A DNA stretch of 26,034 bases from a candidate division WWE3 bacterium CSP1-7. GTDB lineage: Bacteria > Patescibacteriota > WWE3 > 9FT-COMBO-53-11. Made by a program: the position numbers and the translations under genes. Positions 2,583 to 23,500 of the stretch are shown here, in pieces. The stretch covers positions 223,278-249,311 of the forward strand of contig LDXK01000001.1 in the NCBI GenBank assembly GCA_001443395.1, written 5' to 3'. Numbering within the stretch: position 1 is the stretch's first letter; every line of letters begins with the position of its first letter. The notes under the pieces are model-generated. The model was not told where the DNA came from. It ran no database searches and saw only the letters and a list, made by a program, of their open reading frames with translations.

Positions 2583-2685
2583 ATTCGTTGGTAGACGGCT
2601 CGCTTCGCGAACCTAGCACCCTCTCGTTTCATTCGTCGGTGGACGCCCTGATGGATCCAGAGCTAGCACTTCCTAGCTTCACTCG
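2583..2685. repeat. Degenerate tandem duplication, about 48-50 bp period
   Basis: ATTCGTTGGTAGACG (2583) vs ATTCGTCGGTGGACG (2631); CTAGCAC at 2613 and 2663; TTCATTCG (2628) vs TTCACTCG (2678). Confidence 0.55.
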
Positions 2686-3311
2686 GAAGTGTAGATCCTC
2701 CCGAAGTATTCGCCTTTAATTGTCGGTCGAGTTTTGACCGTCGGTCGGAGCAGATAGAGGTCCGAAGCATCCCCGATTGTCTTAGCGTTGAGATATTCAT
2801 TAAACTTCGGCCGCAGCTCCTCCATTACGACGCCGTGGGCCAGAATCTTTTCTTGGACCGCCAGCGCCCGCACCGGATCGAGAGAACCGTAGGAGAGAAA
2901 AACCCGGCCGCGGACTCCCTTGACCAGGGCTTCTAGCGCCCGGGAAAGAAATAGCGATACGCCTTCCGGCGTATAAGGAGGATCGGTAAAAACGGTATCG
3001 AAGGAAGCCAAGAGCCGTTTCGGCAGAGGAAAAGTCAGATTGTGGTGGGCGGTGAAAATGGCATTGCCACTCTCCCGCTTGAGCACCTCCAGAACATCCT
3101 GGTCAATGTCCAACGCCCAGATCTCGGTGTTCTTCCCTCGCGGCTGGGCCGCCAGGGAAGTGAGATCATAGTCGCCGAGGAAAAGAACCTTGGAATCGGT
3201 CAGAAAACCCCTCTCCCCTAAAAGATTGACGCGGGCCGATAGCGTTTCTTCGGTTACGCCGAATTGGTCAAACTGGCGCTTGGGTGCTGGTCGAATTGAT
3301 GCCAATTCCAT
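2679..3311 (-). CDS. Bis-aminopropyl-spermidine synthase (BpsA/DUF43)-like SAM-dependent Rossmann-fold protein
   Basis: RP.PK..FDQ, LGDYDLTSLA (cf. GDDDL), LDID, FDTVFTDPPYTPEG..LFLSR resemble the BpsA/DUF43 catalytic domain; only 210 aa. Confidence 0.75.
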   Translation of the reverse strand: MELASIRPAPKRQFDQFGVTEETLSARVNLLGERGFLTDSKVLFLGDYDLTSLAAQPRGKNTEIWALDIDQDVLEVLKRESGNAIFTAHHNLTFPLPKRLLASFDTVFTDPPYTPEGVSLFLSRALEALVKGVRGRVFLSYGSLDPVRALAVQEKILAHGVVMEELRPKFNEYLNAKTIGDASDLYLLRPTVKTRPTIKGEYFGRIYTSE

Positions 3312-3398: not shown

Positions 3399-5093
3399 CT
3401 ATTCCTCGGTCGGGGTCTTGCCTTCGAGTTGGTCAATCGTGGCCTGAGCGGTTTTCAAGGCGTCGGCGGATTTAACCGTTCCCAAAACATCCGAGACCGC
3501 TTTGTGCAGCGCATCTGCATAGGTTTGATTGCCGGAGAGATCGACCGTCTTTGAGGAAACGGCTTCCGGGGCGGTTTCAAGAAGTGGGCCAAGAATTTCG
3601 TGCTCGGCCAGGCTGGCAGCGAGCGACCGCACCGCGTAGGGCTCGCCGAAAGGCCGATTCTGGGCCTCGGCGGCGTAGAGAGCGCGCTGCTGGTCCTCGC
3701 GGGTGAGATACTCCAAAAATGCCCAGGCGATCTCACTGCGCTCGGTGTCGGCGCTGACGCTCTCCGTCCAGAAAGTCCCCCAGTGTACTCCCCCCTCCGT
3801 TGCGGCCGGAAGCTGGGGAACAGCAGAGGCGGCGAATCCGAGATCGGGATTCAGCGCGGCGATATCGAGCGCCCGCCAGGACGGGGCGACGATCATTGCC
3901 ACCTGGCCGTTGGCGAAAGCGTTGATCGAAAACGGCAGAGTTTCGTTCCAAACCCGGTCCACCTTCGAAAAGTTCGTGTAGAAGGTGAGGGCATCGGCCG
4001 CCGCCTGGGTGTTGAGCTCCGTCAGCGGATCCACGCCGCTCTGGGCCAACAGCAGAGAGAGAATATCAGCGGAATGGGAAATGTTGTTGGCCGTCCCAAA
4101 AGCGGCGCCGGATTTGAGAATTGCTCCTTCGTTGGCGTCGTTGTTTTTCCAGGTGGTGAGCTTGACCGCTTCGCGGCGAAAGTCCTCCCAGGTCTTGATT
4201 TTTTCCGGCACATCAACTCCCTTGAGGAGAGCCTTGTTGTAGAAAAGAACCAGGCCATCATATTCCAACGGAACGGAGTAGATCTCCGTCCCGACCTTAG
4301 CGGAAGCAAGCGCCGCCGGATAAAAACGGAGAGCGTAGTCCTGTTCCGAGAGGACCTCCGCCGGCAGAGGAGCGATCTCGGTGGAGAAATCCCCCACCCA
4401 AGAGTTGTGGAGACGGAAAATGTCCGGTCCGGTTCCTTGCTGGAGGCGCGTCAACAGGGTTTCCCGGTACTGTTCGAGCGTGCCGAAGGAACGCTTTTCG
4501 TAATTAATCGTGAGATTTACCCGCGGATTTTCTTTCTTGTACTCCTCAATAAAAGAAGTGATCAGCGGATTAACCACTTCGGGACTCTCCCAAAGTCCCC
4601 AGTAGGCCAAGGTTACTTCTCCCCCTTGGAACAATCCGCCAATCAACGGAAGGCGGGAGAGATCCAAACTGGCAAAACTGACGACGGCGATCCCCAGGAT
4701 AATCACGACCCCCAGGATCACTAGCGGCCGGATCAGCCCGCGCAGCCGTTCAATCAGATTTCCGGCCGGAGCTTCCGGCGGCAGAGGCGCCGGGGGCGCA
4801 GTGGGGGGCGGTGGGGGTGGGGGTGGCCCGAATGGTTTTGGTCCCCCGGCTAATGGAAAAGGTGAGGCGGAGGGTGGGGGGATACTCGGCTTAGGAGGCG
4901 GCGGCAGCGGCGGCGGGAGAGGAGCCGCCAACGGAGAAGGGAGCGGAGATGGTACCGGCCGCGGTAATTCCGGAACGGGCGGAGTCGGTGGAGGCGGTGG
5001 AGGTACCACGGGAGGAATCACCGGAGCAGGACCGGGAGGAGGAACAGGAATCGGCGGCGAACTGACGGGTGGCAAAGCAGGAAAGTCTTCCAT
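3399..5093 (-). CDS. Extracellular solute-binding protein (sugar-type, family 1) with Pro-rich N-terminus and a TM anchor
   Basis: About 110 aa of polyproline, TM segment LVILGVVIILGIAVVSF, then LAYWGLWE, GPDIF, IYSVP...LFYNK, F.NGQVAM, AWAFLEYL. Confidence 0.85.
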   Translation of the reverse strand: MEDFPALPPVSSPPIPVPPPGPAPVIPPVVPPPPPPTPPVPELPRPVPSPLPSPLAAPLPPPLPPPPKPSIPPPSASPFPLAGGPKPFGPPPPPPPPTAPPAPLPPEAPAGNLIERLRGLIRPLVILGVVIILGIAVVSFASLDLSRLPLIGGLFQGGEVTLAYWGLWESPEVVNPLITSFIEEYKKENPRVNLTINYEKRSFGTLEQYRETLLTRLQQGTGPDIFRLHNSWVGDFSTEIAPLPAEVLSEQDYALRFYPAALASAKVGTEIYSVPLEYDGLVLFYNKALLKGVDVPEKIKTWEDFRREAVKLTTWKNNDANEGAILKSGAAFGTANNISHSADILSLLLAQSGVDPLTELNTQAAADALTFYTNFSKVDRVWNETLPFSINAFANGQVAMIVAPSWRALDIAALNPDLGFAASAVPQLPAATEGGVHWGTFWTESVSADTERSEIAWAFLEYLTREDQQRALYAAEAQNRPFGEPYAVRSLAASLAEHEILGPLLETAPEAVSSKTVDLSGNQTYADALHKAVSDVLGTVKSADALKTAQATIDQLEGKTPTEE

Positions 5094-6403
5094 TAGTTAT
5101 CAGAATAACTAAAGGAAAGTCCCATAATCAAGGAAAAAAGAAAGAGGCCTTGAGGCGAGGTATAGAGATAATGATCGAAGAACCCCAGAAAAACCAGCTG
5201 AAGCAGGGCGATCGTTATCAACCGGTTCTTCTGCCGAAGGGTCTGGCGGAAGGCGGCGGCCAACAGGAAAAGAAAGGCCAGCAGGGCCGGAATCCCGCTC
5301 TCCGCCGCAATCAGGGCAAAAATATTGTGCGCCGGCTGAATGAATAGAGAGAGGCCGGAGGGGAGGCCAAACTCGGGTAGGACACTGGTAAATTGACCCA
5401 ACCCCACTCCGGCCAGCGGGGAAGAAGAGATCATTCGACCGGCACTCTCCAAGAGTTCCCACCGCCGGCTAAAGGAGAGATCACCCCAGAGAAGGAAGGA
5501 ATGGAATCCGGACAGCAGGGAGGTTAGACCCCCAGCCAGGGATACCCAGGCCGTTCGAGACAGAGAAGCGACCACGGCCGCGAAGCCGACCCCGAAACCA
5601 AACCAGCGCTTGCGCGCCGCCAGCCAAACCAAAACCACGCTCAGAATTCCACCCAGAACATTGGGATGCGGAAAAGTTCCGTAGGCCCGAAGAACCTCTC
5701 TTCCTCCCCAGGAACCCAGCGCCACTCCCCCTAGAGAGGGGCTCAAATTCGGCTCACCCATAAACCAGTAACCCAGGAGGGAGTGTTGGGTAAGAAACTG
5801 GCCGAGAGCCAGCAGGGAAACCCAACCGACGGCGATTCCCAGCAGAAGAACAAGGGTCTTCTTTCCTTTTTTCGAAATGAAAGTTGCCACCCAAAATCCA
5901 AAACCCAACCAGAGTGCCAGCTCCAACCAGCGCCAGAGAGAGATTAAAGAAAAACCTCCACTGGTGGTGAGTGCAGTCGCACCTTGCCAAACCGAAGGCA
6001 AAAGCGCCATCAAAAAAATTCCCGCCAGAATCAGGAAGGTTTTTCGAGGCTGCTTAAGCTTTTGTTTGAGAAGGCGCCGCAGACTAAAGAGCAGCAGCAA
6101 CGCCACTAGAATTTCAGTGAGATAGATGGCCGGAGAAAGATAATCAATTAGCAAACCTAGAACATAGCTCTGCGGTAGGACAAAGTGTTTGGCAAGGTTG
6201 TTCGGAAATACGAGAATAATAAAAGAGAATAATAGTACCAGTATGGCAGGCAGTTTACCTGTGGAAAAGTCTATTTCTCTCCAGATATTCTGAAAATTTC
6301 TCTTGTGGAAAAACTGGTGATAAATAGAGGTTGGTTTGGGGAAAAAGGGAGAGCGACGGAACTTCTTTGCTTTTTCAACGATTCTTCCCCAAAATTTCCC
6401 CAC
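5093..6403 (-). CDS. O-antigen ligase (Wzy_C)-like polytopic membrane protein; start uncertain
   Basis: RAYGTFPHPNVLGG, SLSRTAW, PLAGVGLGQF, PAHNIFALIAAESGI. The GTG start overlaps the dnaA 3' end. Confidence 0.85.
   Translation of the reverse strand: MGKFWGRIVEKAKKFRRSPFFPKPTSIYHQFFHKRNFQNIWREIDFSTGKLPAILVLLFSFIILVFPNNLAKHFVLPQSYVLGLLIDYLSPAIYLTEILVALLLLFSLRRLLKQKLKQPRKTFLILAGIFLMALLPSVWQGATALTTSGGFSLISLWRWLELALWLGFGFWVATFISKKGKKTLVLLLGIAVGWVSLLALGQFLTQHSLLGYWFMGEPNLSPSLGGVALGSWGGREVLRAYGTFPHPNVLGGILSVVLVWLAARKRWFGFGVGFAAVVASLSRTAWVSLAGGLTSLLSGFHSFLLWGDLSFSRRWELLESAGRMISSSPLAGVGLGQFTSVLPEFGLPSGLSLFIQPAHNIFALIAAESGIPALLAFLFLLAAAFRQTLRQKNRLITIALLQLVFLGFFDHYLYTSPQGLFLFSLIMGLSFSYSDN
6212..6345. 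other. oriC: Candidate replication origin (DnaA-box cluster plus AT-rich repeats)
   Basis: TGTGGAAAA (reverse complement TTTTCCACA, fits TTWTNCACA) at 6260 and 6304; near-boxes TGGTGATAA at 6315 and TGGGGAAAA at 6337; GAGAATAATA repeats at 6212 and 6225; immediately downstream of dnaA. Confidence 0.65.
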
Positions 6404-7694
6404 GGATCGATTCTACCTGATTCTTGAGGATTTCATCCGTCGCCAGTTGTTTTTCAATCTTCCCCAAGCCGTGCAGAATGGTGGAGTGGTCCTTTCCTCC
6501 CAGAAGCTCCCCGATCTGGTTTGAGGAGGCCTTGCTGATTTGGTGGAGAAGATGCGCCGCCACTTGGCGAGGAAGAACCACTTCTCGGGAGCGTTTGGGA
6601 GAACAGAGCTGCTCGGCCGTGATGCGGTAGGCCCGACAAACACTTCCGATAATATCCGAAGGAGTTATGAAGGGGTTGACCGGCATGGTGGTTTTGACCA
6701 CCGCATTCAGCAGCTCCTCCGTCGGTGCCGCCTGCTGGGCGCGGGCCACCGCCACCAGTTGGTGGAGAGCCCCTTCGAGCTGGCGAATGCTGCCCTCGAT
6801 CTTCTGCGCCAAGGAGAGAAGGACCTCCTCCGAAACCTGGGCCTGCTGGTCGGCGGCCTTTCTTCTGAGAATCTGCAGGCGCATTTCCAAGTCCGGTTCT
6901 TGAATGTCGGTGATCATTCCGCCCGCAAACCGGGAAACCAGCCGCTGCTGGACGTCGCGGATCTCGGCGGGATGCCGGTCGGAGGCGATCACAATCTGCT
7001 TTCCGGCGAGATAGAGTTCATTGAAGGTGTTGAAGAATTCTTCCTGGGAAGCGGTGCGGGAGGCCAGAAACTGGACGTCGTCGATCAGGAGGGCGTCGAC
7101 GCTGCGGAATTTTCTCCGAAAACTCGCCGCCGTTTGCTGGCTTTGAATGGAACGAATGAACTCGGTCGTGAACCGCTCGGCCGAAGCATAGATGATCCGC
7201 GCGTCCGGAATCCTTTCCTTGATCGAGTTTCCCACGGCATGAAGGAGGTGCGTTTTCCCGAGACCCACTCCCGAATAAACAAAGAACGGGTTGTGAAGCG
7301 CTCCCGGTTGTTCCGCGACGGCTCGAGCGACGCCCACCGCCAGCTGGTTGGAGATCCCAACCACAAAATTCTCAAAGCTGTAGGAATCCGCCAATCCGTT
7401 GGGAGGGGCGTGATGAAACAGTGTTCCGGGGTCCTGGGGAAGGGTGTTCACCAGCGGTTTGATCTCAAAAGAAAATTGATGGTCTTCACCGCAAACCGTC
7501 CGGAAGGCCTCCGCCAGTTGGGATTGATGGGCGCGCAGTTGCTCCAGCGCCATTCGATTTGGGCAGAGGATTCGCGCCCGCCCTTCCCCAATTTCGGCCA
7601 ATTCCGCGGTCCCAAAAAAAGTAGCAATTACCCCTTTGGAGAGATCGCGTTCCAAGAATGTAAGTACACTTTGCCAGGTTTCTTTATAATTCAT
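6375..7694 (-). CDS. dnaA: Chromosomal replication initiator DnaA
   Basis: YSFENFVVG, NPFFVYSGVGLGKTHLL (Walker A), LLIDDVQF (Walker B), QEEFFNTFN, GGKDHSTILHG in domain IV. Confidence 0.98.
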   Translation of the reverse strand: MNYKETWQSVLTFLERDLSKGVIATFFGTAELAEIGEGRARILCPNRMALEQLRAHQSQLAEAFRTVCGEDHQFSFEIKPLVNTLPQDPGTLFHHAPPNGLADSYSFENFVVGISNQLAVGVARAVAEQPGALHNPFFVYSGVGLGKTHLLHAVGNSIKERIPDARIIYASAERFTTEFIRSIQSQQTAASFRRKFRSVDALLIDDVQFLASRTASQEEFFNTFNELYLAGKQIVIASDRHPAEIRDVQQRLVSRFAGGMITDIQEPDLEMRLQILRRKAADQQAQVSEEVLLSLAQKIEGSIRQLEGALHQLVAVARAQQAAPTEELLNAVVKTTMPVNPFITPSDIIGSVCRAYRITAEQLCSPKRSREVVLPRQVAAHLLHQISKASSNQIGELLGGKDHSTILHGLGKIEKQLATDEILKNQVESIRGEILGKNR

Positions 7695-7817
7695 TTTGTT
7701 TCTTCAATTAGATAAACAGGTGGGCGGGGAGCGAGAGAAGACAGGGAAGATGCGTAAGTTAATAACTAGGTTAAGTCACCGGGGTGTGTCAAGGGGGTGA
7801 AGAAAAGATTTGGGGTG

Positions 7818-7895
7818 TGCTATAGTGGGGCCGAGATTCCTGCGGTGGCCCCAGAGAGAACCAAAAGGCGGATCTACGGCTTATAATATAAGGAG
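7818..7895 (+). promoter_or_regulatory. Putative rpmH operon promoter elements
   Basis: Extended -10 TGcTATAGT (7818-7826), a GGGGCC...GGCCCC hairpin (7827-7852), TATAAT (7882-7887) and AAGGAG (7890-7895). Confidence 0.4.
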
Positions 7896-7909
7896 TAGTA
7901 AAATTACTC

Positions 7910-8050
7910 ATGCCAAAAAGAACATTTCAGCCCAACAAAAACAAAAGAATTACGACTCACGGCTGGCGGCGGCGGGTGAAAACTTCCGGCGGCCGAGCGG
8001 TTTTGAAGCGCCGCCGTCTCAAAGGGCGCCGCGCCATCGTTCCTTCCTAA
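7910..8050 (+). CDS. rpmH: 50S ribosomal protein L34
   Basis: Too short for the ORF track. Manual translation: [46 protein letters not shown]. Divergent from dnaA. Confidence 0.96.
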
Positions 8051-8391
8051 TGCTCCCTCGGGAGAATCGCCTTTCGGCCGAGTTTGATTTTCGCCGGTTG
8101 AAGAGGGATGGCCAGCGCTACGGAACTCCTTTCTTCAATCTCTTTCTTCTCTCCAATCAGAAAGATCCGGTGCGGTTCGGTTTCGTCGTTTCCACCCATG
8201 TCAGCAAGCTGGCGACCCGTCGGAATCGGCTGAAGCGAATTCTGCGGGCGCAGATAGAAGAATTTCTGCCGGCAATCAGGGGCGGCACCTGGGGAGCCTT
8301 TTGGGTGCGAGAGCCCGCCTTGGGGGCCAACTCTCAAGTCCTGCGCCAAGCGGTCGAACAGACCTTAAAAAGAGCGGGGGTATTATGGTGA
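8050..8391 (+). CDS. rnpA: Ribonuclease P protein component
   Basis: MLPRENRL...[21 protein letters not shown] (RNR motif); TAATG stop/start overlap with rpmH. Confidence 0.95.
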
Positions 8392-8660
8392 AAGCACTTT
8401 TGCTCAAACTGATCCGGTTCTACCAGCGCACCATTTCTCCGGACCACGGGGCCTGGGGGCAGTTGGCTTTCGGGGGCGCTTGCCGCTTTCAACCCACCTG
8501 TTCCGAATACACCCGTCAGGCGATTGAAAGGTACGGGTCGGGGCGGGGCCTATTCTTCGGATTTAAGCGGATCCTGCGCTGTCACCCTTTCGCAAAAGGC
8601 GGTTTTGATCCCGTTCCTGATCTTGGAAAGGCGCGAGATGCTAAGATTGTCAAATCATGA
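8385..8660 (+). CDS. yidD: Membrane protein insertion efficiency factor YidD
   Basis: [36 protein letters not shown]; ATG at 8385. Confidence 0.95.
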
Positions 8661-9948: not shown

Positions 9949-11040
9949 ATGGATGTTACCGTTCTCCAGGAAAATTTGCTTCCCCGCCTGACCGCAGTGG
10001 CGCGAGTGGCTTCGGCGAAATCGGCTCTGCCGATCTTAGAGAATGTTCTCCTGACGGCGGAAAAGGCGGTTCTCCACCTAGCCGCCACCGATCTGGAGAC
10101 CGGGATCAAGACGAAGGTGGGCGCCAAGGTTTCCACCGAAGGCGCAATTACAGTCCCCGCCCGATTGCTGGTATCTCTGATCACCAATCTTCCTCCGGGA
10201 AAGGTAACGCTTAAAGCCGAAAAAGATATTCTGACCATTTCGGCGGAGAGTTTTTCTTCCAAAATCAATGGGATGCCCGCCGCCGAATTTCCGAATCTGG
10301 CTTCTCCCGGTAAAGCTCTTTTCAAGATTCCGGCAAAAGATTTTAAGGAAGCGGTCACCCAGGTTTCTTTTGCGGCGGCGCAGGATGAGTCCCGGCCGAT
10401 CCTGACCGGAATTCTGCTGAAGCTGGGAGGAGGAACGTTGGTGTTGGCCGGAGTGGACGGTTTCCGTTTGGGAGAAAAGAAAATTTCCATTGCCGGGGAA
10501 GGGCTGACGGCGGTCGTGCCGGCCCGGTCACTGGGGGAAGTTTCTCGCTTGGTTGAGGGAGAGGTTGAAATTGGCCTGGCCGAGGAAGGCCAGCTCTTCT
10601 TTAACGCTCCCGATTTCTTGGTTCTTTCCCAGGTGCTGGAAGGGGAATTTCCCGAATACGAGCAGATTATTCCAGGCAATTTTGAGACCAAAATTTCCTT
10701 CTCCAAAGAGGAGATGGTTAAGGCCGTTCAGCTGACCTCGGTTTTCTCAGACTCCGGCACCACGATTATTGTTTTCAATTTTGATCCGCAGAAGAAAATT
10801 TTGGAGGTCTCTTCCCAGGAAGCCCAGCAGGGAGAGGCCCGCTTGGAGATTCCGATCAGCGGTGAAGGGAAGAAGGGGATGATTGCCTTCAATTCCCACT
10901 ATGTGAGCGATGCTCTAAGTGCGTTGCTGGATGAGGATGTGACGCTCGCGATGAACTCCAGCCTGGATCCGGTTCTGCTGACTTCTCCCAAAGACAAAAA
11001 CTACCGGCACGTGATTATGCCGGTCCGGCTACAAGATTAA
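9949..11040 (+). CDS. dnaN: DNA polymerase III beta sliding clamp
   Basis: LPILENVLL, ATDLE, ESRPILTG, DGFRL, G.FPEYEQIIP, IAFN, VIMPVR. Confidence 0.97.
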   Translation: MDVTVLQENLLPRLTAVARVASAKSALPILENVLLTAEKAVLHLAATDLETGIKTKVGAKVSTEGAITVPARLLVSLITNLPPGKVTLKAEKDILTISAESFSSKINGMPAAEFPNLASPGKALFKIPAKDFKEAVTQVSFAAAQDESRPILTGILLKLGGGTLVLAGVDGFRLGEKKISIAGEGLTAVVPARSLGEVSRLVEGEVEIGLAEEGQLFFNAPDFLVLSQVLEGEFPEYEQIIPGNFETKISFSKEEMVKAVQLTSVFSDSGTTIIVFNFDPQKKILEVSSQEAQQGEARLEIPISGEGKKGMIAFNSHYVSDALSALLDEDVTLAMNSSLDPVLLTSPKDKNYRHVIMPVRLQD

Positions 11041-11338: not shown

Positions 11339-13225
11339 TTAGACGGTGGGAACGAGAGGAGCGGGCGGAACGGCCGGGGCGGCGGGAGGGACCTCGGTTG
11401 GTAGCCCTTTCTCTCTTGCCTCCTGTTCCAGCTTTTCTTTAATCGCCAGAATTTCCTTCGGCGAGGAAGTTGCCAGCGGGTGTTCATCGGGCGAGGCAAC
11501 CACCTGCATTGCAACATGGTTCGGGCCGGCAAAGAAGAGCCCCTCTCCGACGTTCGCCGCCAAGAGAATCCGCTTCTCTCCCTCCGACAGATAGAAGACT
11601 TTGGTGATTTCGTCGATCGCGGCCGGGTGCTGTTTGAGGAGGATCTGGAGCGAGGAGTTGGTCACGATCGCCTTGCCGTAATCGGAGCGGAGGAAATCCG
11701 CCACATCCTGGGTGATGGTGGTTAGGCCCAGGTAGTATTTGCGGGCCCGCTTGGCGATGGAGTACATGAAGACCGCCGAGTCGGGGTGCTGCATCAGGTA
11801 CCAGGCCTCGTCGACGACCAGAACCCGCTTCTTGATCTCGCGGCGGATCCGGCTCCAGATGAAGTCGAGAATGATGTACATCGCCACCGGCCGGACCTTC
11901 TCTTCCAGGTCCCGGGTGGAGAAGACGGTGAAGGTGTTGCGGATGTCCACGGTGGAGGGCTGGTCAAAAATCCCCTTCAGTGAACCGGTAACGTACTGCT
12001 CGAGCCGGTCGGCCAACGGCTGGCCGCCGGGACTTCTTTTCAACACCTCGTAGATATCCGTCATCACCGGGGCGGGATTCTGGTGGGTCGTTGGGTCTTG
12101 GGTTATTCCTTTGCCGGCGTAGGTTTCCAGGAGGGCTCGATCGATCAGGGCATCCTCGGAGGGAGCGAGTTGGCCCATGATGACTTTGAAGAGAGTGTGC
12201 AGAGAGAGAACCTTCAGCGCCAGCTCATTCTCCCCTTCTTCATAGGTTCCCGACATATCAAAAGGATTGATTTTGGACGGCGAGGACGGCGAGAAGGTGA
12301 TAAAGTCGCCGCCGATGCTCCGGCAGAGCTGTTCATACTCTTTTTCCGGGTCGATCACCATCACTTCGGTGCCGAACATCAGCGAACGGATCGCCTCCAG
12401 TTTGACCATGTAGGATTTGCCGGCGCCGGACTTAGCGAAGACAACGGTGTTGGCATTCTCCAGCGAGAAGCGGTCGAAGATGATCAGCGAACCGTTGTGC
12501 TCATTGATGCCGTAGAGAATTCCTTCGTTGGCGGTCAGTTCCGAAGAGGTGAGCGGGAAGGTGGTCGCGATCGAAGTGGTGTCCATATTCCGCATAATTT
12601 TCAGCTTGTCCAAGCAGGTGGGAATGGTGGATTGGAAGGCCTCTTCCATCCGGAGGGTGGCGTGCTTGGAGAGGAGCAGAAGGGAGCCGAGAGTTGATTC
12701 CACTTTCTTGGTGACCGCGTCCAGCTCCTCGATCGATTCAGCGCTGATAGTGATGTAGAAGGAGAATTGGAAGAAGCGTTCGGTTCCTTTCACCAGTTGT
12801 TCCTGGAGGGAGCGGGCGTCCTCGAGGGCGGCCTCCACCGTGGGATCAGCGACCCGTCCTCCCTTCTCGTTCTCCTTGACGGTGGCTTCCATTTCGGCGA
12901 TCTTTCGACGAAGGTCGTCGAGAACTCCCCGCGATTCGACCGGGTAGTAGAACATCGACAGGGTGAGGGTGTGGTTGAAGTTGATCAACGGCGAGAGCCA
13001 GTTGGCGCCGACGAAGCGGGGGTATCCGGAGACAAAGATCGTCCGGACAAAGGTCTCTCCGATCTTGAGGTGGTTGAAGTCAACATCGATCGAAGGCGGG
13101 GCGATGATGTCCTGGACCGAGACCGCTCCGGCCGCGATGGTCTGAGCGAGCTGCGGCAGGGTCGCGGGTGCCCCGGCGGGAACGGGAACGGGAGGCGGGG
13201 CGTAGACTCCGGGCTGTTCTGTCAT
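11339..13225 (-). CDS. virB4: VirB4-like type IV secretion ATPase
   Basis: FDRFSLENAN, AKSGAGKS (Walker A), VIDPEKEY, INPFD, VVDEAW (Walker B), KRARKY, TQDVADF. Confidence 0.9.
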   Translation of the reverse strand: MTEQPGVYAPPPVPVPAGAPATLPQLAQTIAAGAVSVQDIIAPPSIDVDFNHLKIGETFVRTIFVSGYPRFVGANWLSPLINFNHTLTLSMFYYPVESRGVLDDLRRKIAEMEATVKENEKGGRVADPTVEAALEDARSLQEQLVKGTERFFQFSFYITISAESIEELDAVTKKVESTLGSLLLLSKHATLRMEEAFQSTIPTCLDKLKIMRNMDTTSIATTFPLTSSELTANEGILYGINEHNGSLIIFDRFSLENANTVVFAKSGAGKSYMVKLEAIRSLMFGTEVMVIDPEKEYEQLCRSIGGDFITFSPSSPSKINPFDMSGTYEEGENELALKVLSLHTLFKVIMGQLAPSEDALIDRALLETYAGKGITQDPTTHQNPAPVMTDIYEVLKRSPGGQPLADRLEQYVTGSLKGIFDQPSTVDIRNTFTVFSTRDLEEKVRPVAMYIILDFIWSRIRREIKKRVLVVDEAWYLMQHPDSAVFMYSIAKRARKYYLGLTTITQDVADFLRSDYGKAIVTNSSLQILLKQHPAAIDEITKVFYLSEGEKRILLAANVGEGLFFAGPNHVAMQVVASPDEHPLATSSPKEILAIKEKLEQEAREKGLPTEVPPAAPAVPPAPLVPTV

Positions 13226-13935
13226 TATTGTTCTCCTCCCACCGCCGGTTCAACCATCACCGAGGTGTAGTTGCCCGCGCCGCCGGCGATGTGCTGGTAG
13301 CGAGCCTGCTCCGGGTTGTAGATTTCGTAGAACATGCCGATCAGTTCAGGAGTGGTGAGCTGGCGGGATTTGATCCCCAACCTCTCCATCTGTTTGAGGA
13401 GGTGGTCGCGCTTCGGCTCCAGATCAACCTTCGCTCTTTCCAGGATCGCGGCCTTGTTGATCCGCGGACCTTGGGGCTTTTTGCCGAACAGAAAATCCAG
13501 GAAAGAAGGGCGTGAAACCGAGATCGCTTCAAAGTGCGGGATCACGATGTAGAAACGTTTGTCCAGGACCTCCCCTTTCTGGACGAGGGAGGCAATAAAT
13601 TCCTTATAGGAGGTAATCTTCTCCCGGAGATAGGGATTGGCTTGGGTGGTGATGGCGGCCTGCTCGTCAATCCATTTCAGGTAGCTGGAGAGGTCGAGCT
13701 TCCGAGAGCGGACCAGAATTTGGACGGGAAAAGAGAGGGAGTTGAGCATCGAGGCGTAGGCCCCGATCATTGAATCCTGCTCCCGTTCGGAGAGCAGGTC
13801 AAAGTTGACGGAAGTGGTCTCCAAAACAAGAGAGGCGTTGCCGTTTTTCAGCAGGATCAGATCCTCTTGGATATCGAGAATGTCGAGGTGTTCCTGGGTG
13901 GTGGCTTGAGTTTTGGGTGGTTTGGTTTTTACCAT
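13225..13935 (-). CDS. VirB4-associated protein resembling a separately encoded VirB4/TraC N-terminal domain
   Basis: VLETTSVNFDLLSEREQD..I..Y...LNSL.FPVQIL; lies between PrgI and VirB4 and overlaps the VirB4 start by 1 bp. Confidence 0.7.
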   Translation of the reverse strand: MVKTKPPKTQATTQEHLDILDIQEDLILLKNGNASLVLETTSVNFDLLSEREQDSMIGAYASMLNSLSFPVQILVRSRKLDLSSYLKWIDEQAAITTQANPYLREKITSYKEFIASLVQKGEVLDKRFYIVIPHFEAISVSRPSFLDFLFGKKPQGPRINKAAILERAKVDLEPKRDHLLKQMERLGIKSRQLTTPELIGMFYEIYNPEQARYQHIAGGAGNYTSVMVEPAVGGEQ

Positions 13936-13937
13936 GG

Positions 13938-15362
13938 CTATTTTGACCTTATCTCCAACTCTTCCATTTCCTTTCCTGTTAACTCAACCTTCATTGTAGC
14001 AAAGGAAAACGGCGTTTTCGGGACTCGGACCGCGTATTTCCCATTGGGGAGCGGGCTGGTGACGAACTTACCTAGTTCACTGGTCTTGATGGCGCGGACG
14101 ACGTTGCCCTTTTCGTCCTCGACCACCACCAGAGTTTGGTCGAGGATTCCGCCCTGGGGATCGAAAACTACACCGGCGATGATGTTCTCCCCGGCTTTGG
14201 GTGGAGCGATCGGCGGCGCCGCCGAGGGTTTGGGCAGAGGGGGAGCTGTAGGAAAAGGAATAGGAGTAGGAATAGGTGTGGGTTTTTCTTCGGGCGGCGA
14301 CGGAACTACCACCGGTGGTGGAGTCGGTTCCGGTATCGGTTCGGGCTCAGGCAGCGGCGCGGGAGGAGGCGGGGGCGGAGCTACTGGAGCGGGTGGAATT
14401 TCCTCCACTTCGGGAACGGGCGGAAGCGGCAACGGAGGGGGCGGGGCGATCGGTTCCACCGTCACAGTTGCCAGGGCCGGTGCCGTCGGAAGTTCCGGGG
14501 CGATGATCTGTTCTCGGGCGGGAGCGTAAACCATCTCGCCGGCGATAGCCAGCGGCGTTAAGCGGCGGCCGACCCGGGTGTTGCGGCGGGCGGCGAAATA
14601 ACTGGCGACCCGCCCCCGCTGGACTTTGTAGACCGGTTCGGCGAAATTGACCTGAGAAGCCAGAGAAGCCCGTTCGATGATTTTGGTCGCCTCCACAAAT
14701 CTCAGCCGCGGGGCTGGTGGAGGAGGAGGCGGTCCCTCGACTTCGCTCGGGGCGACTGGCGAAACAGTCGGAGCGGCCATCACCTCTTCCAGGGTTAGCG
14801 CCGCGGTCGGCGGAGCGACCGGAACGGGAGCCGGGACAAACGCCGGGGCGGCCGGGGTCACCATGGTTTGGGCGAGGCTGCGGATGGATCCCAGGTACTG
14901 TTCTTCCGCCAGATCCAAAGGATTGAGCTCTTTTTGTTCGCGGATTCCACCGAGGTAAGTTTCCAGCCGGCGGCGGGATTCTTCTGGACTGATTTCCGGC
15001 CCGCTCACTCTAGTGAATTTGGGCATCTCCAAAATCAAAAATTCGGCCGGCGCGGTGCTCTTAACCCACATCCGGCGGGTGGGAGAGTAAACTGCCCGGA
15101 AGAAAGCAGTGATCCATTGATCCAGCGATTGGTCTTGAAAGGGTATCAGAGCGAAGGCAACACCGAAGAGAACAAGAGATATGGAGATAAGGAGACGGAA
15201 CGGGAGGAAAAGACCGGAGGAGAAAATGGCAAAGGCGAAGAACCCGCAGATCGCCAGGATGGCGAACTGGCGGATAGTGAGATCACCGATCAGCTTGAAC
15301 TGGACCCCAAAAACCTGCTGGGGAACGGCGTGCTGTTTGGTTGTGAGCGGTTCTTCAGGCAT
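13938..15362 (-). CDS. prgI: PrgI-family (VirB3-like) membrane protein with Pro-rich linker and C-terminal carboxypeptidase-regulatory-like beta domain
   Basis: QHAVPQ...QFKLIGDLTIRQF plus two TM helices; C-terminal IAGVVFD.QG......V.V.D.KG...KTSELGKF...LPNGKY.V. Confidence 0.8.
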   Translation of the reverse strand: MPEEPLTTKQHAVPQQVFGVQFKLIGDLTIRQFAILAICGFFAFAIFSSGLFLPFRLLISISLVLFGVAFALIPFQDQSLDQWITAFFRAVYSPTRRMWVKSTAPAEFLILEMPKFTRVSGPEISPEESRRRLETYLGGIREQKELNPLDLAEEQYLGSIRSLAQTMVTPAAPAFVPAPVPVAPPTAALTLEEVMAAPTVSPVAPSEVEGPPPPPPAPRLRFVEATKIIERASLASQVNFAEPVYKVQRGRVASYFAARRNTRVGRRLTPLAIAGEMVYAPAREQIIAPELPTAPALATVTVEPIAPPPPLPLPPVPEVEEIPPAPVAPPPPPPAPLPEPEPIPEPTPPPVVVPSPPEEKPTPIPTPIPFPTAPPLPKPSAAPPIAPPKAGENIIAGVVFDPQGGILDQTLVVVEDEKGNVVRAIKTSELGKFVTSPLPNGKYAVRVPKTPFSFATMKVELTGKEMEELEIRSK

Positions 15363-17363: not shown

Positions 17364-17408
17364 ATTTTAGGGAAACAGAGACTGATAGTCAATTTAAGAT
17401 GCTAAGAT
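17364..17408. promoter_or_regulatory. Back-to-back promoters for divergent, near-leaderless genes
   Basis: Minus strand: TTGACT (17392-17387)-17 bp-TAAAAT (17369-17364), 8 nt before ATG. Plus strand: TGcTAAGAT (17400-17408), 7 nt before ATG. Confidence 0.6.
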
Positions 17409-17415
17409 TTAACCA

Positions 17416-19635
17416 ATGGCTGTTTCTGGAAACATCTTTAGTTTTTTCCTCCCGAGCCAGCGCCGCCGCCGCGCTCTACCCACTCTTCCCGCGCCCCCCC
17501 AGGAGGCCGCTCTTGTTAAGGGTTTGGAGGAGGCTTACGCCGCCGTTGACGCGCTCAATCTTCCGAACGAGGTTGGGGAAAATTTTAAGAAGGACCTCAT
17601 ATCCTCCCTAGACATTGCGACACCGCCTACTTCTTACCAAGGGCTATACCCGGGAAATATTGCCCGGCTTTCGTTCAATCTCTCCAAGATTTTTCAGGAT
17701 CCGGTCGCTGGCACCGTTGGAGCTTTGAGTAAATACGTTGGAGAATACGGAAGCGACATCACGAGGTACATCGACCCAAGGTACTACAACGATAGAGTTC
17801 TTGGTCCGGTTCTAAAGCAGTTTAAAGATCGGGATACCGGTAATAATTTACTTCCCTCCTCGACCAGTTACCGTTTAGAGAACTGGGCTTCGGCCGCGGG
17901 AGCGACCCGTACTGCTCGGTTGGGAGCACAGGAGGGTATCTTGGACGACCCGGGGTTGATTGAGATTTGGGCGGGTGAACTCGCAAGCGCTAACCCAGGT
18001 TTGGTCATCAACGGAGTTACGATTGCCGATGTAATTACCGAGTCAGGCACTTCCCGCAGAATTCTTGATTCATTGCGTTCGCAGAGTTTTCAGGCGGCGC
18101 GGATTGGGGATTGGAATCTTGCTGATCAACTTGGCAACCGGATCAAGAATGAGTTGGGTGGTTTTAAAGAACGGCTTGAGCTTCGCGGGGTTTCGCCTTC
18201 TGACGTAACCAGGGAATTCGAGTTACTTGTCAAATCTAACCCCGGCATCTCCACCGATGCCACGCGACTCTACCGAACGCTTAAGGGTCAGCAGGTTTAC
18301 TACGGAGTATTTGATTTTCTCAAGGCGTGGAAGAAGGGGGGAATCTCGGAAGTTGCTCGGGAATATGTTTGGAAAGCAGCAACAAAAGCCATCTTTAAGG
18401 AAGGCACCGCGGGTTATTATTTGTACCCGCCTAACTTAATCAAAGAGGGGGTTAAGAGAGTTTTTGGCGGACAAACTGGGCGGCTAGCAAAGCTTGTTAG
18501 ATCCCAGGTGGCAAATGTCAGGAAGTTCCTCATCCAGAAGATTGGTCCCGTTCTCGGCGGTCTGCTTAAGAAGGTTTTCGCTGTTATGGGTGGTCTTTCA
18601 ATCTCGGTCACTGGGCCAGTTGGGCCGATTGTCGCGGCGATTGTGAACTTCATCATCGGCGACATTATTTTAAAAGCGCTAGGAGGGACTCTTAAGATAC
18701 TGGCCTACACCATTGGTGGTCTTGTCGCTTTCTCCATTGCTCTTGGGATAGGGTTGGTAGTTTTGCTCTCGATCATTCTCGCCAACATCCCCTACCCCTG
18801 GGAGCAGGGGGGCAGCGCGTCTCTGCAGCGGTTTGTGCAGATCGAGGTGAAGGCGTGCGACACCGCTGCCGGCTGTTCCTATCAAAATCCCCTGCGGGTC
18901 TCTAACGGCCAGCATTCTATCGGCTGGCGAGTCGTGATCAAAAATATCTCCCCCGTGACTCTCACCGGCTCCGAATTCACTTTCTCCCAAACGCAGTGCA
19001 CGGGGTCGGGAGCTTTCGATTTTGCCCTTGCTCCTGGGGCGGAACGAGTGGCGGTTTGTTCCAGCTCGTTTACCGAAACGGACGAGGTGGTGAGCAACGT
19101 GGTTTCTTTTGCCTCCTCCGGACCCGCCACGAACGAAGAATCCGTCGGGATTGTTATTTTTGGCAATCCTCCGGTCGTACTTCCCACCGGCTGGCCGGTC
19201 GGAAAGGGTTGCATCACCCAAGGACCGGATGGTTCCTACTCCCACGGCGGTACCGAGGCGATCGATATCGGTTCCGTCAGCACCGGAACGGCAGTGCGGG
19301 CGACTTTCAATGGGGTGGTGCAAACGGCGTGTTGGGCATCCGGGGACGGATGTGATCCCGACGGTTACGGCAACTACGTGCGCTTGTCATCTCTGAATGG
19401 CAACTTCAGTGCCGTCTTTGGCCACTTGGCCACCACCAGTGTGAAGAGCGGTGACCAGGTCACCGTCGGCCAGCAAGTAGGGACCGTGGATAACACCGGC
19501 AACTCTTCCGGCACCCACCTGCACTACGAGTTCCGCAGTTTGCCCATGGCTGAGCCTTATATCCCGCGTGATACTGGCAGCCACGGGAGTATTCGCGACT
19601 GTTCGGATGCCAGTGAGTGCGGTTTGTGTTTTTAA
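17416..19635 (+). CDS. Large membrane-anchored M23 metallopeptidase (copy a)
   Basis: Long N-terminal region, hydrophobic segment, Ig-like beta domain, then GWP, SHGGTEAIDI, YGNYV, FGHL, VDNTGNSSGTHLHYE. Confidence 0.88.
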   Translation: MAVSGNIFSFFLPSQRRRRALPTLPAPPQEAALVKGLEEAYAAVDALNLPNEVGENFKKDLISSLDIATPPTSYQGLYPGNIARLSFNLSKIFQDPVAGTVGALSKYVGEYGSDITRYIDPRYYNDRVLGPVLKQFKDRDTGNNLLPSSTSYRLENWASAAGATRTARLGAQEGILDDPGLIEIWAGELASANPGLVINGVTIADVITESGTSRRILDSLRSQSFQAARIGDWNLADQLGNRIKNELGGFKERLELRGVSPSDVTREFELLVKSNPGISTDATRLYRTLKGQQVYYGVFDFLKAWKKGGISEVAREYVWKAATKAIFKEGTAGYYLYPPNLIKEGVKRVFGGQTGRLAKLVRSQVANVRKFLIQKIGPVLGGLLKKVFAVMGGLSISVTGPVGPIVAAIVNFIIGDIILKALGGTLKILAYTIGGLVAFSIALGIGLVVLLSIILANIPYPWEQGGSASLQRFVQIEVKACDTAAGCSYQNPLRVSNGQHSIGWRVVIKNISPVTLTGSEFTFSQTQCTGSGAFDFALAPGAERVAVCSSSFTETDEVVSNVVSFASSGPATNEESVGIVIFGNPPVVLPTGWPVGKGCITQGPDGSYSHGGTEAIDIGSVSTGTAVRATFNGVVQTACWASGDGCDPDGYGNYVRLSSLNGNFSAVFGHLATTSVKSGDQVTVGQQVGTVDNTGNSSGTHLHYEFRSLPMAEPYIPRDTGSHGSIRDCSDASECGLCF

Positions 19636-19637
19636 AG

Positions 19638-20666
19638 ATGAGCTTGTCGGACGTCCAAGAATTTATTGTGCGTAATCGCCGTAAACTTTTGATAGCCCTG
19701 TTATTGGTGGTTATCATTTCTTTGGCGGCGGGATTTATCTGGCGAGAAGTGATAACCGAGGTTCCCGAAGAGGAAAAAATTCCGTCCTTCACTCTCTCTC
19801 AGGTGCCGGGGAGAGTATTGGGTGTGATTGATTTTTCCAAACTCTCCGCGCCGGATTTTCCACCGTCCTCTACGGTATATCGGATTGAGAAAATGAGCCT
19901 AACTTTTACTCAAGCGGATGCTGCGGGGTGGGCGAAGAGTTTTGGATCTCTCTCTCCGTCGGGAGAGGTCGCAACGCCTCTGGGCGTGATCTACGTTTTT
20001 GCCAAAAAAGGGGAGGAGCTGACCGTTACCAGCAACCCCCGCGCGCTGCACTACACCCGCGAGGGCGGGGGTGGTACGGAGACGCTGCCGGGCAGCGCCA
20101 CTGTTATCGGGATGGCCAAGGAGTTTTTGGCGGCAAAAAAACTTCCTGATACCGGCTCGTTCTCCCCAACCGTTAGGTATCTGAGTGCGATCGGTGAGCG
20201 CACCGCCGAAACAACGGCCGCGGAAGCGAGATACGCAGAGGTTAATTTTTCCTGGTCGGTAAACGGACTCAACATTCTGGGAGAGAGCTCTACCGATTCC
20301 GCCATTCGCGTGATTTTTGATAGGGCGGGACGGGTGGTTTACCTGAGTTATCAGTTCCTTGATTACTCCTTCGCCGCCGATAAGAATTTTCCTCTCCTGA
20401 GCCTCGAGCAGGCCAAAGATGCCCTAGCGGCGGAACCGCAGATAGTTTCGATCCGCCCGATGGGAGATGTCGAAGAATGGACGCTCTCCGAATCCACCAA
20501 CCTCAGCGAGTTCACCCCCGAAAGCGTGCGGCTGGTGTACGTGAGGTTGGCAGACAGCGCTCTTCTCCATCCGGTTTACTTGTTTGAGGGCAGCGGTAGT
20601 ACCGGCGGAATTGGTGTCCGAGCGGCCGCCTATGTTTTGGCTGTATCCGATCAGTACACAAAGTAA
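19638..20666 (+). CDS. Single-TM extracytoplasmic protein, M23 partner a
   Basis: Start reassigned to ATG 19638 (MSLSDVQEFIVRNRRKLL), 2 bp after the M23 stop, by alignment with its paralog; C-terminal V.LVY...LHPVYLFEG. Confidence 0.8.
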   Translation: MSLSDVQEFIVRNRRKLLIALLLVVIISLAAGFIWREVITEVPEEEKIPSFTLSQVPGRVLGVIDFSKLSAPDFPPSSTVYRIEKMSLTFTQADAAGWAKSFGSLSPSGEVATPLGVIYVFAKKGEELTVTSNPRALHYTREGGGGTETLPGSATVIGMAKEFLAAKKLPDTGSFSPTVRYLSAIGERTAETTAAEARYAEVNFSWSVNGLNILGESSTDSAIRVIFDRAGRVVYLSYQFLDYSFAADKNFPLLSLEQAKDALAAEPQIVSIRPMGDVEEWTLSESTNLSEFTPESVRLVYVRLADSALLHPVYLFEGSGSTGGIGVRAAAYVLAVSDQYTK

Positions 20667-21729: not shown

Positions 21730-23460
21730 TTACCAGCGAATATTGGGGCAGCTGGGGAAGAGACACCCGCGAATACCGCCGCCCCCGTCATCGGGAATGT
21801 ACGGAACTCTCATCTCCAAGGCTCTTAGGCGGAATTCGTAGTGAAGATGAGTTCCTCCCATTCCGGTATCACCGACCGCTCCGATCACGCTCCCCGGAGA
21901 AACCGGTTGGCCCTTTCCCACGAAAACTGCCGAAAGGTGGCCGTAGCGAATTATGGTGGGGACATCGGGGTCGCCGGATTGGAGATCGATATAGTTTCCG
22001 TATATCGGGTCGGTTCCGGTCGCCAGGATGTTTCCCTCGACGGTTGCCAGAACCGCATCTCCCATGCTCACGCCGGGTCCGGGACCGATGTCGATCGCCT
22101 CTACCACTCTGTGAGTGCAGTTGGCGCAGGAGGCTTTTGGACCCTGGAAGATGAAACCGTGGTAGGTGGGCCAACCTAGGAATTTTCCGCTCATCAGTAC
22201 GTCCGCGCAGTTGGCAGGGTGGGCGGTGAGTCCATAGATTATGCAATCTACAGCTTCTCCAACGTTTCCGAGGGAAGCAATTTTTAGAGTGGAGGTAGCG
22301 CCGACGGCGCTTTTGAACGCCTCCCAAAGACCACTCAATCCTCCCGTCTGGGAAAACGACACCCGCGATTCTTCGCTGTCCTCGGACTTGAAAATTGTCT
22401 CCGGGGGTAAGAGAGCAGCAAAAGCACCACTGGGGCCAGCCATATTTGCCCAAGCCCCCCCGGCTAAGGATACCTTCGACTGAACATCCAAATCTCCCGT
22501 AGCGGTAAGAGTTTCAATGCTAGGTATAAACATTTTTGCGATGCAGCCGATGTCGGTCAGGTCGCATTCTCTTATCTCGGAAATGGGTTCGATCACTTCC
22601 AATGCGCGCCAGATAGCTTTGCGGAACCAGGAAACTCCCTCTTTAGGAACGATGGGGCGGGGGCTGAAATTTTCCGCGGGACAGTTCACATCGGGAAGTT
22701 CCAACGGTTCGTCGGTGGGAAAAGAGAAGGCCTGTGCCAGGAGACCGTACCGGTCGTAGAGCGGAGCAACCTCGCCGAACTTCCCTTCTAGCTGGTAGTT
22801 CTCCTCTCCAACTTGAATTTTTTCTTCTTGGCCTTCGGTACGAACATCCCAGTAAGGTTTGGTTTGGGTGGGGGCGTGGGTTCCATCGATCTCCAATTCT
22901 CCGCGGTCGGGATGGACACTCACTTGAATATTGGTTTGGTTCTCGACCACCCATCCTTGAGCCAACTGTCCTTCGGCTTTTGTCAAGGCGAGGTTGGGGT
23001 CCACTTCCTTCCCGTTCTCGTTTTCTTGCTTGTAGCCGGGCATAAGGAGTTTTGGGATTGAGCCGGTTAACTCTCCCGGTTCAGTGGATTCGGGATCGCC
23101 CGATAGCGTCATTGTTCGGGCCCGGATAAGCTCGACGGGCATGTTAGTTGGGTTACTTAGAGTAAGTTGCCCCTCGTCATTTGTATATGGGATTTTGAAA
23201 GAGACACCGAAGCATTGGGCCCGAGCTTTCCCACCTTTTGGGAGCATTGGGATGCATCCGCTAATACTCAACCCGTAGTTTTCACCGACCGCGTTAGCGT
23301 TAGCTGCCTCGGAGGAAAGAGCGGGAGAACCCTTCCTAATAAACGGGCAGGTTGGGATTTCTGCTGCCGTCACCGGCCCCACGCTGAGGATTAATCCACT
23401 GATCAGGAAAAGCAACGCTAAGATGGCAGGGGTCGTAGGAAAACGCATTCTATCCGGCAT
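21730..23460 (-). CDS. Secreted M23 metallopeptidase (copy b)
   Basis: Signal peptide (..VTAA), unknown Cys-containing N-terminal region, then GWP, THRVVEAIDI, YGNYI, YGHL, VGDTGMGGTHLHYE. Confidence 0.88.
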   Translation of the reverse strand: MPDRMRFPTTPAILALLFLISGLILSVGPVTAAEIPTCPFIRKGSPALSSEAANANAVGENYGLSISGCIPMLPKGGKARAQCFGVSFKIPYTNDEGQLTLSNPTNMPVELIRARTMTLSGDPESTEPGELTGSIPKLLMPGYKQENENGKEVDPNLALTKAEGQLAQGWVVENQTNIQVSVHPDRGELEIDGTHAPTQTKPYWDVRTEGQEEKIQVGEENYQLEGKFGEVAPLYDRYGLLAQAFSFPTDEPLELPDVNCPAENFSPRPIVPKEGVSWFRKAIWRALEVIEPISEIRECDLTDIGCIAKMFIPSIETLTATGDLDVQSKVSLAGGAWANMAGPSGAFAALLPPETIFKSEDSEESRVSFSQTGGLSGLWEAFKSAVGATSTLKIASLGNVGEAVDCIIYGLTAHPANCADVLMSGKFLGWPTYHGFIFQGPKASCANCTHRVVEAIDIGPGPGVSMGDAVLATVEGNILATGTDPIYGNYIDLQSGDPDVPTIIRYGHLSAVFVGKGQPVSPGSVIGAVGDTGMGGTHLHYEFRLRALEMRVPYIPDDGGGGIRGCLFPSCPNIRW

Positions 23461-23500
23461 TGTTCAGATAAATCTTAACAGAATTGAACGGCTTAAATTG

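Follow-up and report, generated by a model that had tools for sequence, protein, structure and literature searches.

The window analysed here is a 26,034-nt stretch of the genome of candidate division WWE3 bacterium CSP1-7 (C1:223278-249311), taken from a 572-kb assembly of seven contigs with ~53% GC and an estimated completeness of 80%. On its minus strand, dnaA is followed not by dnaN but by an open reading frame (ORF) for a Wzy_C-family (O-antigen-ligase-like) membrane protein. Straight after the dnaA stop codon, and inside this ORF, lies a module (6207-6345, minus strand) composed of four co-oriented DnaA-box-like sites, a spacer, a run of triplets and an AT-rich tract, which we examine as a candidate chromosomal origin (oriC). 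The genes and elements concerned are as follows.

6375-7694, minus strand: dnaA, 439 aa (Pfam Bac_DnaA 206.5 bits, Bac_DnaA_C 76.1 bits), with its stop codon at 6375-6377
5093-6403, minus strand: Wzy_C-family membrane protein ORF, above the Pfam gathering cut-off for PF04932 (38.1 vs 31.7 bits, residues 253-378); 436 aa, overlapping the dnaA 3' end by 29 nt, if the GTG at 6403 is the start
6382-6402, plus strand: two weak box-like sites in reverse orientation, TTCTTCCCCAAA and TTTCCCCA, inside the dnaA 3' end; inverted repeats with 6335-6346
6337-6345, minus strand: distal DnaA-box-like site TTTTCCCCA, two mismatches to TTATCCACA; direct repeat with the site at 6303-6313
6315-6323, minus strand: degenerate box TTATCACCA, two mismatches to TTATCCACA
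6304-6312, minus strand: distal DnaA box TTTTCCACA, +63 from the dnaA stop, a conserved island in alignment A2
6260-6268, minus strand: proximal DnaA box TTTTCCACA, +107 from the dnaA stop, the most conserved island of A2
6245-6259, minus strand: 15-nt spacer GGTAAACTGCCTGCC with a GC cluster at its end, coding Gly-Lys-Leu-Pro-Ala
6227-6244, minus strand: six NTN triplets, ATA CTG GTA CTA TTA TTC, coding Ile54-Phe59, the N-terminal half of helix 1
6207-6237: AT-rich candidate unwinding tract (81% AT), coding the rest of helix 1

An original prediction, made from the letters of the window, had placed boxes at 6260, 6304, 6315 and 6337 with start-to-start spacings of 44, 11 and 22 bp, and these positions and spacings hold. 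It had called the first two consensus boxes; they match the relaxed form TTWTNCACA and are its only exact matches in the window, but each is one mismatch away from TTATCCACA. On the minus strand the boxes are followed by CTGCCTGCC and TACTATTATT as claimed, and the predicted AT-rich repeat with a period of 13 bp is found as two copies of GAGAATAATA, at 6212-6221 and 6225-6234. Among the 30-mers of the window, only one is less stable than the tract 6207-6237 (99.98th percentile), and the other least stable ones lie in gaps between ORFs or at ORF ends. On the window's plus strand, the complement of the triplets reads 3'-NAN-5', like the DnaA-trio; one triplet is CTA (complement GAT) and four are NTA. 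In B. subtilis, the box and the CTA strand stand in the same relative orientation. Within the ORF, the proximal box codes Phe46-Ser47-Thr48.

This anatomy was compared with the search rule given for the basal unwinding system (BUS) in PMC8287927, namely a box with at most two mismatches, a spacer of 0-16 bp and at least three consecutive 3'-NAN-5' triplets with the consensus 3'-GAT-5'; the spacer is commonest at 10-13 bp, and a GC cluster precedes and an AT-rich tract follows the triplets. The box TTTTCCACA at 6260-6268 has one mismatch, the spacer of 15 bp (12 bp in the related loci L007, L009, L012 and L038) ends in CTGCCTGCC, six NTN triplets stand on the box strand (relatives carry CTACTAATACTACTA), and the AT-rich tract 6207-6237 lies beyond the triplets. 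The site also lies at a strand switch next to dnaA, at a resolution of only a few kb. The departure is in location: known cases are usually intergenic, a feature outside the published search rule, and here the core lies inside an ORF. The segment 6207-6345 is probably a DnaA-dependent opening module, that is, a Bacillus-type BUS downstream of dnaA.

Within the single genome, the signal for the module is modest, and several counts weigh against it. The window's two boxes are no more than chance would give (1.06 expected; two or more in 28 of 100 shuffled sequences), and we therefore discarded box counts per window as uninformative. Among the 84 boxes with at most one mismatch in the assembly, ~0.5-1.2 equally close pairs are expected, and eight genome windows show at least four NTA in six NTN triplets, NTN runs arising in any helix-coding DNA. 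These figures would suit a coincidence, in which the boxes are kept for Phe-Ser-Thr and Phe-His-Lys, the trios are helix codons of the NTN type, and the segment has no origin function. Other figures speak for the module. Two boxes with at most one mismatch in the pre-chosen 200 bp after dnaA have p ~4e-4, and they form the only such pair within 100 bp, as well as the top-scoring 200-bp box window, of the assembly; moreover, four sites genome-wide combine such a box with at least five NTN triplets, and the candidate module has the longest run. It is the conservation in relatives, and not the window statistics, that carries the real weight.

A further cluster of box-like sites was seen at 19833-19912 (plus strand), where three one-mismatch matches to TTWTNCACA (TTTTCCAAA, TTTTCCACC and TTTTACTCA) fall in 80 bp in or near the ORF 19617-20666. 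This cluster is probably due to chance, because the window holds 24 one-mismatch matches against 28.7 expected.

The module in relatives and on the chromosome

Forty relatives were searched with DnaA, and a strict BUS pattern (a box with at most two mismatches, a spacer of at most 16 bp, and five NTN triplets with at least three NTA) was run on 30 loci, with the following outcome.

480 nt after dnaA: 13 of 30 loci, 14.5 kb scanned
upstream of dnaA: 2 of 30 loci, 14.2 kb scanned
inside dnaA: 0 of 30 loci, 38.6 kb scanned
far flanks: 1 of 30 loci, 60.3 kb scanned

The control DNA of the same loci thus holds three matches in 113 kb, and several of the loci missed after dnaA visibly hold interrupted triplet runs. 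In the family of the window's genome, the order dnaA then Wzy_C recurs in all nine other species, and it is also found in three loci of other families (L018, L025 and L026). Box-like sites, read by eye, follow dnaA in nine of the nine family relatives, and seven have a box with at most one mismatch there, mostly +63 and +107 from the stop codon (+63 in L001, L004, L006 and L007; +107 in L001, L002, L004, L006 and L007; +104 in L005). At the position of the degenerate box, +52 from the dnaA stop, L002 has a perfect TTATCCACA. Within 450 bp upstream of dnaA, no box with at most one mismatch was found in L001-L009, and L010 has TTATCAACA at -133. Without a box cluster upstream of dnaA, the origin looks monopartite.

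In other families of the class, the same module is present and is intergenic after dnaA (L011-L027 and L030), indicating that it stands as a DNA element by itself and is no by-product of coding. For example, L022 has TTATCCACA, 4 nt, CTACTATTACTACTACTA and then AT-rich DNA, and L014 has TTTTCCACA, 4 nt and CTACTACTAGTACTACTA. This intergenic occurrence, which extends to L009 and L010, argues against coincidence, as does the fact that the two best boxes of the window are read in different frames. At the place of the weak reverse sites at 6382-6402, class relatives carry good reverse boxes. In L012-L014, L020, L024 and L026, the last codons of dnaA together with its stop form a reverse DnaA box (e.g. 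TGTGGATAA, in which TAA is the stop). Such reverse boxes at the dnaA 3' end suggest that overlap of boxes and coding sequence at the origin is class-wide and extends beyond the ligase gene. The related loci are kin, and counts such as 16 of 16 (below) overstate the independent support. Taken across the class, the element downstream of dnaA is most likely the opening site of oriC.

The position on the chromosome agrees with this assignment in part. The original prediction had proposed cumulative GC skew as a check. The minimum on the contig is a broad valley from about -3300 to +4700 in window coordinates, lowest at 1861; the site lies near this valley and next to dnaA, but ~1.5 kb outside it and 4.4 kb from the lowest point, an offset that counts against the assignment. 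The 223-kb arm left of the site holds mostly minus-strand genes. A stronger box cluster elsewhere, which the original prediction had named as a contrary outcome, was not found in the assembled 572 kb; as the assembly is 80% complete and in seven contigs, another origin is conceivable. The other place considered was the divergent dnaA-rpmH gap:

7695-7909: dnaA-rpmH gap, with two AT-rich stretches at the gene starts, read as promoter or ribosome-binding regions

As the original prediction had noted for consensus boxes, no box with at most one mismatch lies in this gap, and we rejected it as the origin for that reason, GC skew alone being unable to separate the gap from the site downstream of dnaA. 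An NTN run at 7884-7901 was likewise rejected as a triplet array, as it is the rpmH ribosome-binding region and has no adjoining box.

The same observations bear on the possibility that the boxes form a DnaA-binding regulatory or titration cluster, where DnaA would serve as a transcription factor or would obstruct a dnaA-ligase transcript, and that the chromosome opens elsewhere, possibly in unassembled DNA. Both B. subtilis and E. coli have DnaA-box clusters away from oriC, none of the boxes here is perfect, and the distance to the skew minimum and the incomplete assembly would also suit such a cluster. A regulatory cluster, however, needs no proximal box with CTA-type triplets at 12-15 bp and AT-rich DNA beyond, a layout that is conserved across families of the class. 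Moreover, no other cluster occurs in the 572 kb, and the family, L010 excepted, has no box with at most one mismatch within the 450 bp upstream of dnaA. We consider a purely regulatory role unlikely.

Reading frame and codon constraint across the module

Whether the module is translated depends on where the Wzy_C ORF begins. The hydropathy peaks of this ORF, computed over the first ~135 residues, lie at residues 46-69 and 81-109, and the AT-rich tract codes the rest of helix 1, in agreement with the earlier claim that the first transmembrane helix is encoded by the AT-rich repeat. The GTG at 6403 is indeed the only in-frame ATG, GTG or TTG before helix 1. A start downstream of about 6210, which the original prediction had put forward as an outcome contradicting it, is impossible, since FPxNLAKHF, a conserved motif of helix 1, begins at 6208.

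Scanning metagenomes with alignment A1 of the ligases added L032, L034, L035, L037, L038, L042 and L043 (L031, L033, L036, L039 and L040 being duplicates of known species), giving 16 usable family loci. In all 16, a canonical start codon precedes the proximal box in frame, and the frame is open as far as FPxNLAK, vs 0 of 16 for each of the other frames; within 120 nt of FPxN, the ligase frame has no stop in any of the 16 loci, and the other frames have ~1.1 and 2.3 per locus. For the window's genus and for L005 and L043, this start is a GTG that falls within the 3' end of dnaA. In L006, L007 and L038 (GTG) and in L008 (ATG), it directly follows an in-frame stop, 25-46 nt beyond the stop codon of dnaA. 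A TGnCAnAAT motif stands 5-9 nt upstream of an in-frame GTG in these four loci, which fits an extended -10 promoter giving a leaderless or near-leaderless mRNA. In L008, the GTG linked to this motif meets a stop after five codons and is then followed by the ATG.

Codon statistics were taken from an alignment of 12 ligases, with the synonymous and codon-position figures from a seven-sequence genus subset. L009, L010 and L042, whose N-termini fail to align, were used in the frame and stop tests and left out of the codon statistics; L038 entered the frame test only, and L043, whose contig ends early, is outside the codon alignment. Identity of synonymous codons was distributed as follows.

whole gene: 0.505
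dnaA overlap: higher still, trivially from dnaA coding
second box to mid-helix 1 (covering boxes, spacer and triplets): 0.75-0.87
FPNNLAKH onward: 0.40-0.48, at an amino-acid identity of 0.96

Box conservation at synonymous sites had been proposed as a check, and conservation is elevated over the boxes, the spacer and the triplets and drops right after them. In the spacer, the codons alternate by eye between AAA and AAG for Lys and among CCT, CCA and CCG for Pro, and a second subgroup has CGG or AGG for Arg. Divergence at codon positions 1/2/3 gave the following pattern.

codons 12-28: 0.46/0.43/0.47
inter-box codons: 0.22/0.29/0.32
spacer: 0.27/0.00/0.33
triplets: 0.19/0.00/0.21
FPNNLAKH onward (alignment columns 67-110): 0.21/0.04/0.56

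The spacer, the triplets and the later codons look like coding sequence in this respect. In the first half of helix 1, furthermore, NTA makes up 50 of the 69 Leu, Ile and Val codons vs 237 of 1458 elsewhere in these genes; the window's own gene has 4 of 6 vs 12 of 118 (Fisher p = 0.0025). Genome-wide, CTA, TTA, ATA and GTA are rare, at 5-9% within their codon families. Opposite NTA of the coding strand stands 3'-NAT-5', which agrees with the trio consensus in two of three positions. The conserved synonymous sites, together with an enrichment of rare NTA codons in helix 1 alone of a protein that probably has many helices, speak against coincidence, a reading that is already disfavoured and that we regard as highly improbable.

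Not all of the evidence favours translation from the GTG at 6403. Codons 12-28 diverge as neutral DNA would, and the inter-box codons, although constrained, have no codon periodicity; with such equal or nearly equal divergence at all positions of the N-terminal tail, the GTG at 6403 is only a candidate for the true start. Its Shine-Dalgarno-like AGGT lies far off, 11 nt upstream. In L009 and L010, a purine-rich motif and an ATG come after the triplets, and the module is probably untranslated there. Shine-Dalgarno analysis carries little weight for the start, as many genes of the window have no such motif, and a promoter scan of 5900-8000 gave no minus-strand promoter-like site for the ligase, terminator-like matches being at chance level. 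A search for sequencing runs covering 5000-8100 returned no RNA data set.

An alternative is that the origin is real and the overlap smaller, with a non-canonical start near or after the proximal box, so that the upstream boxes are intergenic and only the core or the AT-rich tract is coding. A candidate start is the codon at 6272-6274, ATA in the window, TTG in L002, L032, L034 and L035, and TTA in L003 and L004. Such a start would agree with the lack of coding periodicity in codons 12-45 and with a purine-rich GGAG-like motif a few nt upstream of this codon in most genus members. In addition, distant Wzy_C homologues away from dnaA mostly align from residue 56-67 on, which suggests that the ~50-residue tail is peculiar to the dnaA-adjacent genes. 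The ATA that L042 carries where L010 has its ATG is also in its favour. However, TTA is not among the start codons of table 11, all 16 loci retain a canonical upstream start whose frame is open, which neither of the other frames does in any locus, and the GTG that follows an in-frame stop near TGnCAnAAT in L006, L007 and L038 fits a leaderless start at that place. We therefore hold the smaller overlap to be possible yet rather unlikely; even with a start near 6272-6274, the proximal box, spacer, triplets and AT-rich tract would remain coding.

L042 also deserves mention for itself. Before helix 1, it has GGAAGG and then ATA instead of the purine-rich motif and ATG of its close relative L010, and the one canonical start it has is a GTG that precedes the proximal box, suggesting a start-site switch or a non-canonical start.

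What the computation shows directly is the anatomy and its conservation, the bias in codon use, the constraint on synonymous sites and a reading frame kept open. Read together, these findings indicate that the segment 6207-6268, from the proximal box through spacer and triplets to the AT-rich tract, is very probably both an origin core and translated sequence, from Phe46 to Phe66 (the tail end and helix 1). Given that the module is the origin, we have good confidence that its core is translated; that it is a BUS-type oriC downstream of dnaA and also has a translated core is, as a joint statement, moderately likely.

Neighbouring genes

The minus-strand genes of this part of the window are, in order, a class-I aminoacyl-tRNA synthetase, a BpsA_C-domain protein, a solute-binding protein, the Wzy_C ORF and dnaA. 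Divergent from dnaA, the plus strand carries rpmH (7910-8050), rnpA, yidD, yidC, a KH/R3H (Jag-like) gene and dnaN. The longest ORF for rnpA (7810-8391, plus strand) begins with TTG at 7810 and overlaps rpmH in a different frame; the Ribonuclease_P match starts at residue 82 of this ORF, and the true start is probably near 8050. The 210-aa ORF at 2679-3311 (minus strand) matches the branched-chain polyamine synthase A C-terminal domain (BpsA_C) with 127 bits. BpsA is known chiefly from thermophiles and is hence unexpected in a bacterium with a tiny genome. The stretch 11339-15362 (minus strand), 5-9 kb from the candidate origin, holds type IV secretion genes for a TraG/VirB4-like ATPase and a PrgI-family protein; such genes near the origin are described for Patescibacteria in general (PMC12102498). 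Ahead of three starts without a Shine-Dalgarno motif, TG(C/T)TAAGAT stands at a distance of 7-11 nt, suggesting very short leaders and an extended -10 promoter:

8640-8656, upstream of the ATG at 8657 (plus strand)
17398-17415, upstream of the ATG at 17416 (plus strand)
23461-23480, upstream of the ATG at 23460 (minus strand)

A proposed model of an overlapping origin and comparison with known systems

From these patterns we infer DnaA binding and unwinding at the module, as well as its translation start site. In the model that we propose, DnaA would bind the helically phased distal sites (6304, 6315 and 6337) and the orientation-critical proximal box 6260-6268, from which a filament of ATP-DnaA would grow across the 15-bp spacer. 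The filament would then engage the triplets 6227-6244 on the window's plus strand (3'-NAN-5') and melt the AT-rich tract 6207-6237. The family may have lost the spacer DNA that normally parts the module from the next gene, so that the module core became 5' coding sequence. Such an overlap could be cheap, in that the codons of hydrophobic residues have the form NTN, complementary to the NAN of the DnaA-trio, and the choice of NTA, TTA or ATT codons would satisfy the trio rule and AT-richness together. This amounts to a compatibility rule between the NTN codons of hydrophobic residues and the NAN trios opposite them. In its furthest form, in which the family's origin core is translated as a cytoplasmic tail and first transmembrane helix whose codons are set by the DnaA-trio rule, the model is speculative and appears doubtful to us.

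If the model is true, transcription, translation and membrane insertion (transertion) of helix 1 would take place on DNA that must melt, and the origin could be tethered to the membrane, or envelope-gene expression and replication initiation could be coupled, in either direction. It would also mean that a bacterial origin opening module can share DNA with a reading frame, which bears on the limits of genome compaction. A module within an ORF would matter for origin finders limited to intergenic DNA. In open-access papers and bioRxiv, we found no paper that places the core of a DnaA-dependent chromosomal origin in coding sequence, and none that maps an oriC in Patescibacteria, the candidate phyla radiation (CPR) or Saccharibacteria. 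The present analysis offers, for a class of Patescibacteria, a prediction of the origin at nucleotide level, whereas the searchable papers infer only a position 'near dnaA' for the phylum; in PMC12102498, for instance, dnaA serves as a proxy for the origin.

The closest known systems are the BUS of B. subtilis oriC (incC) and of clostridial oriC2, which, as described in PMC8287927, PMC6669920 and PMC7561715, likewise lie downstream of dnaA and comprise one or more proximal boxes, a short spacer that holds a GC cluster, repeats of the 3'-NAN-5' triplet (of CTA type on the strand of the boxes), AT-rich DNA and helically phased distal boxes. The combination of an orientation-critical proximal box with helically phased distal boxes is that of B. 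subtilis incC (PMC6669920), and the triplet arrays of the relatives resemble the C. difficile oriC2 trio 5'-CACCTACTACTATTACTACTATGA-3' (PMC7561715). The window's module differs in that its boxes are TTTTCCACA and not perfect. It also differs in its setting: the B. subtilis and clostridial elements are intergenic between dnaA and dnaN in the accounts cited, whereas here dnaN is elsewhere (9949-11040, on the opposite strand) and the Wzy_C ORF covers the module. The intergenic modules of the other families of the class keep the same order of dnaA, box cluster, triplets and AT-rich DNA, sometimes with a Wzy_C gene next, but their boxes are more often perfect TTATCCACA than the window's, and in L018 and L026, by eye, the downstream ATG comes roughly 50-100 nt past the triplets, with no overlap.

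For origin DNA that is at the same time coding DNA, the parallels come from phages and plasmids. The origin of phage lambda lies within gene O. Phage P1 oriL lies within repL (PMC9948254). In these origins, as in the present module, the AT-rich part is coding sequence constrained at synonymous sites. They differ from it in that each lies in the gene of its own initiator on a mobile element, whereas the module described here is a candidate DnaA origin of a chromosome, placed in an unrelated membrane-protein gene.

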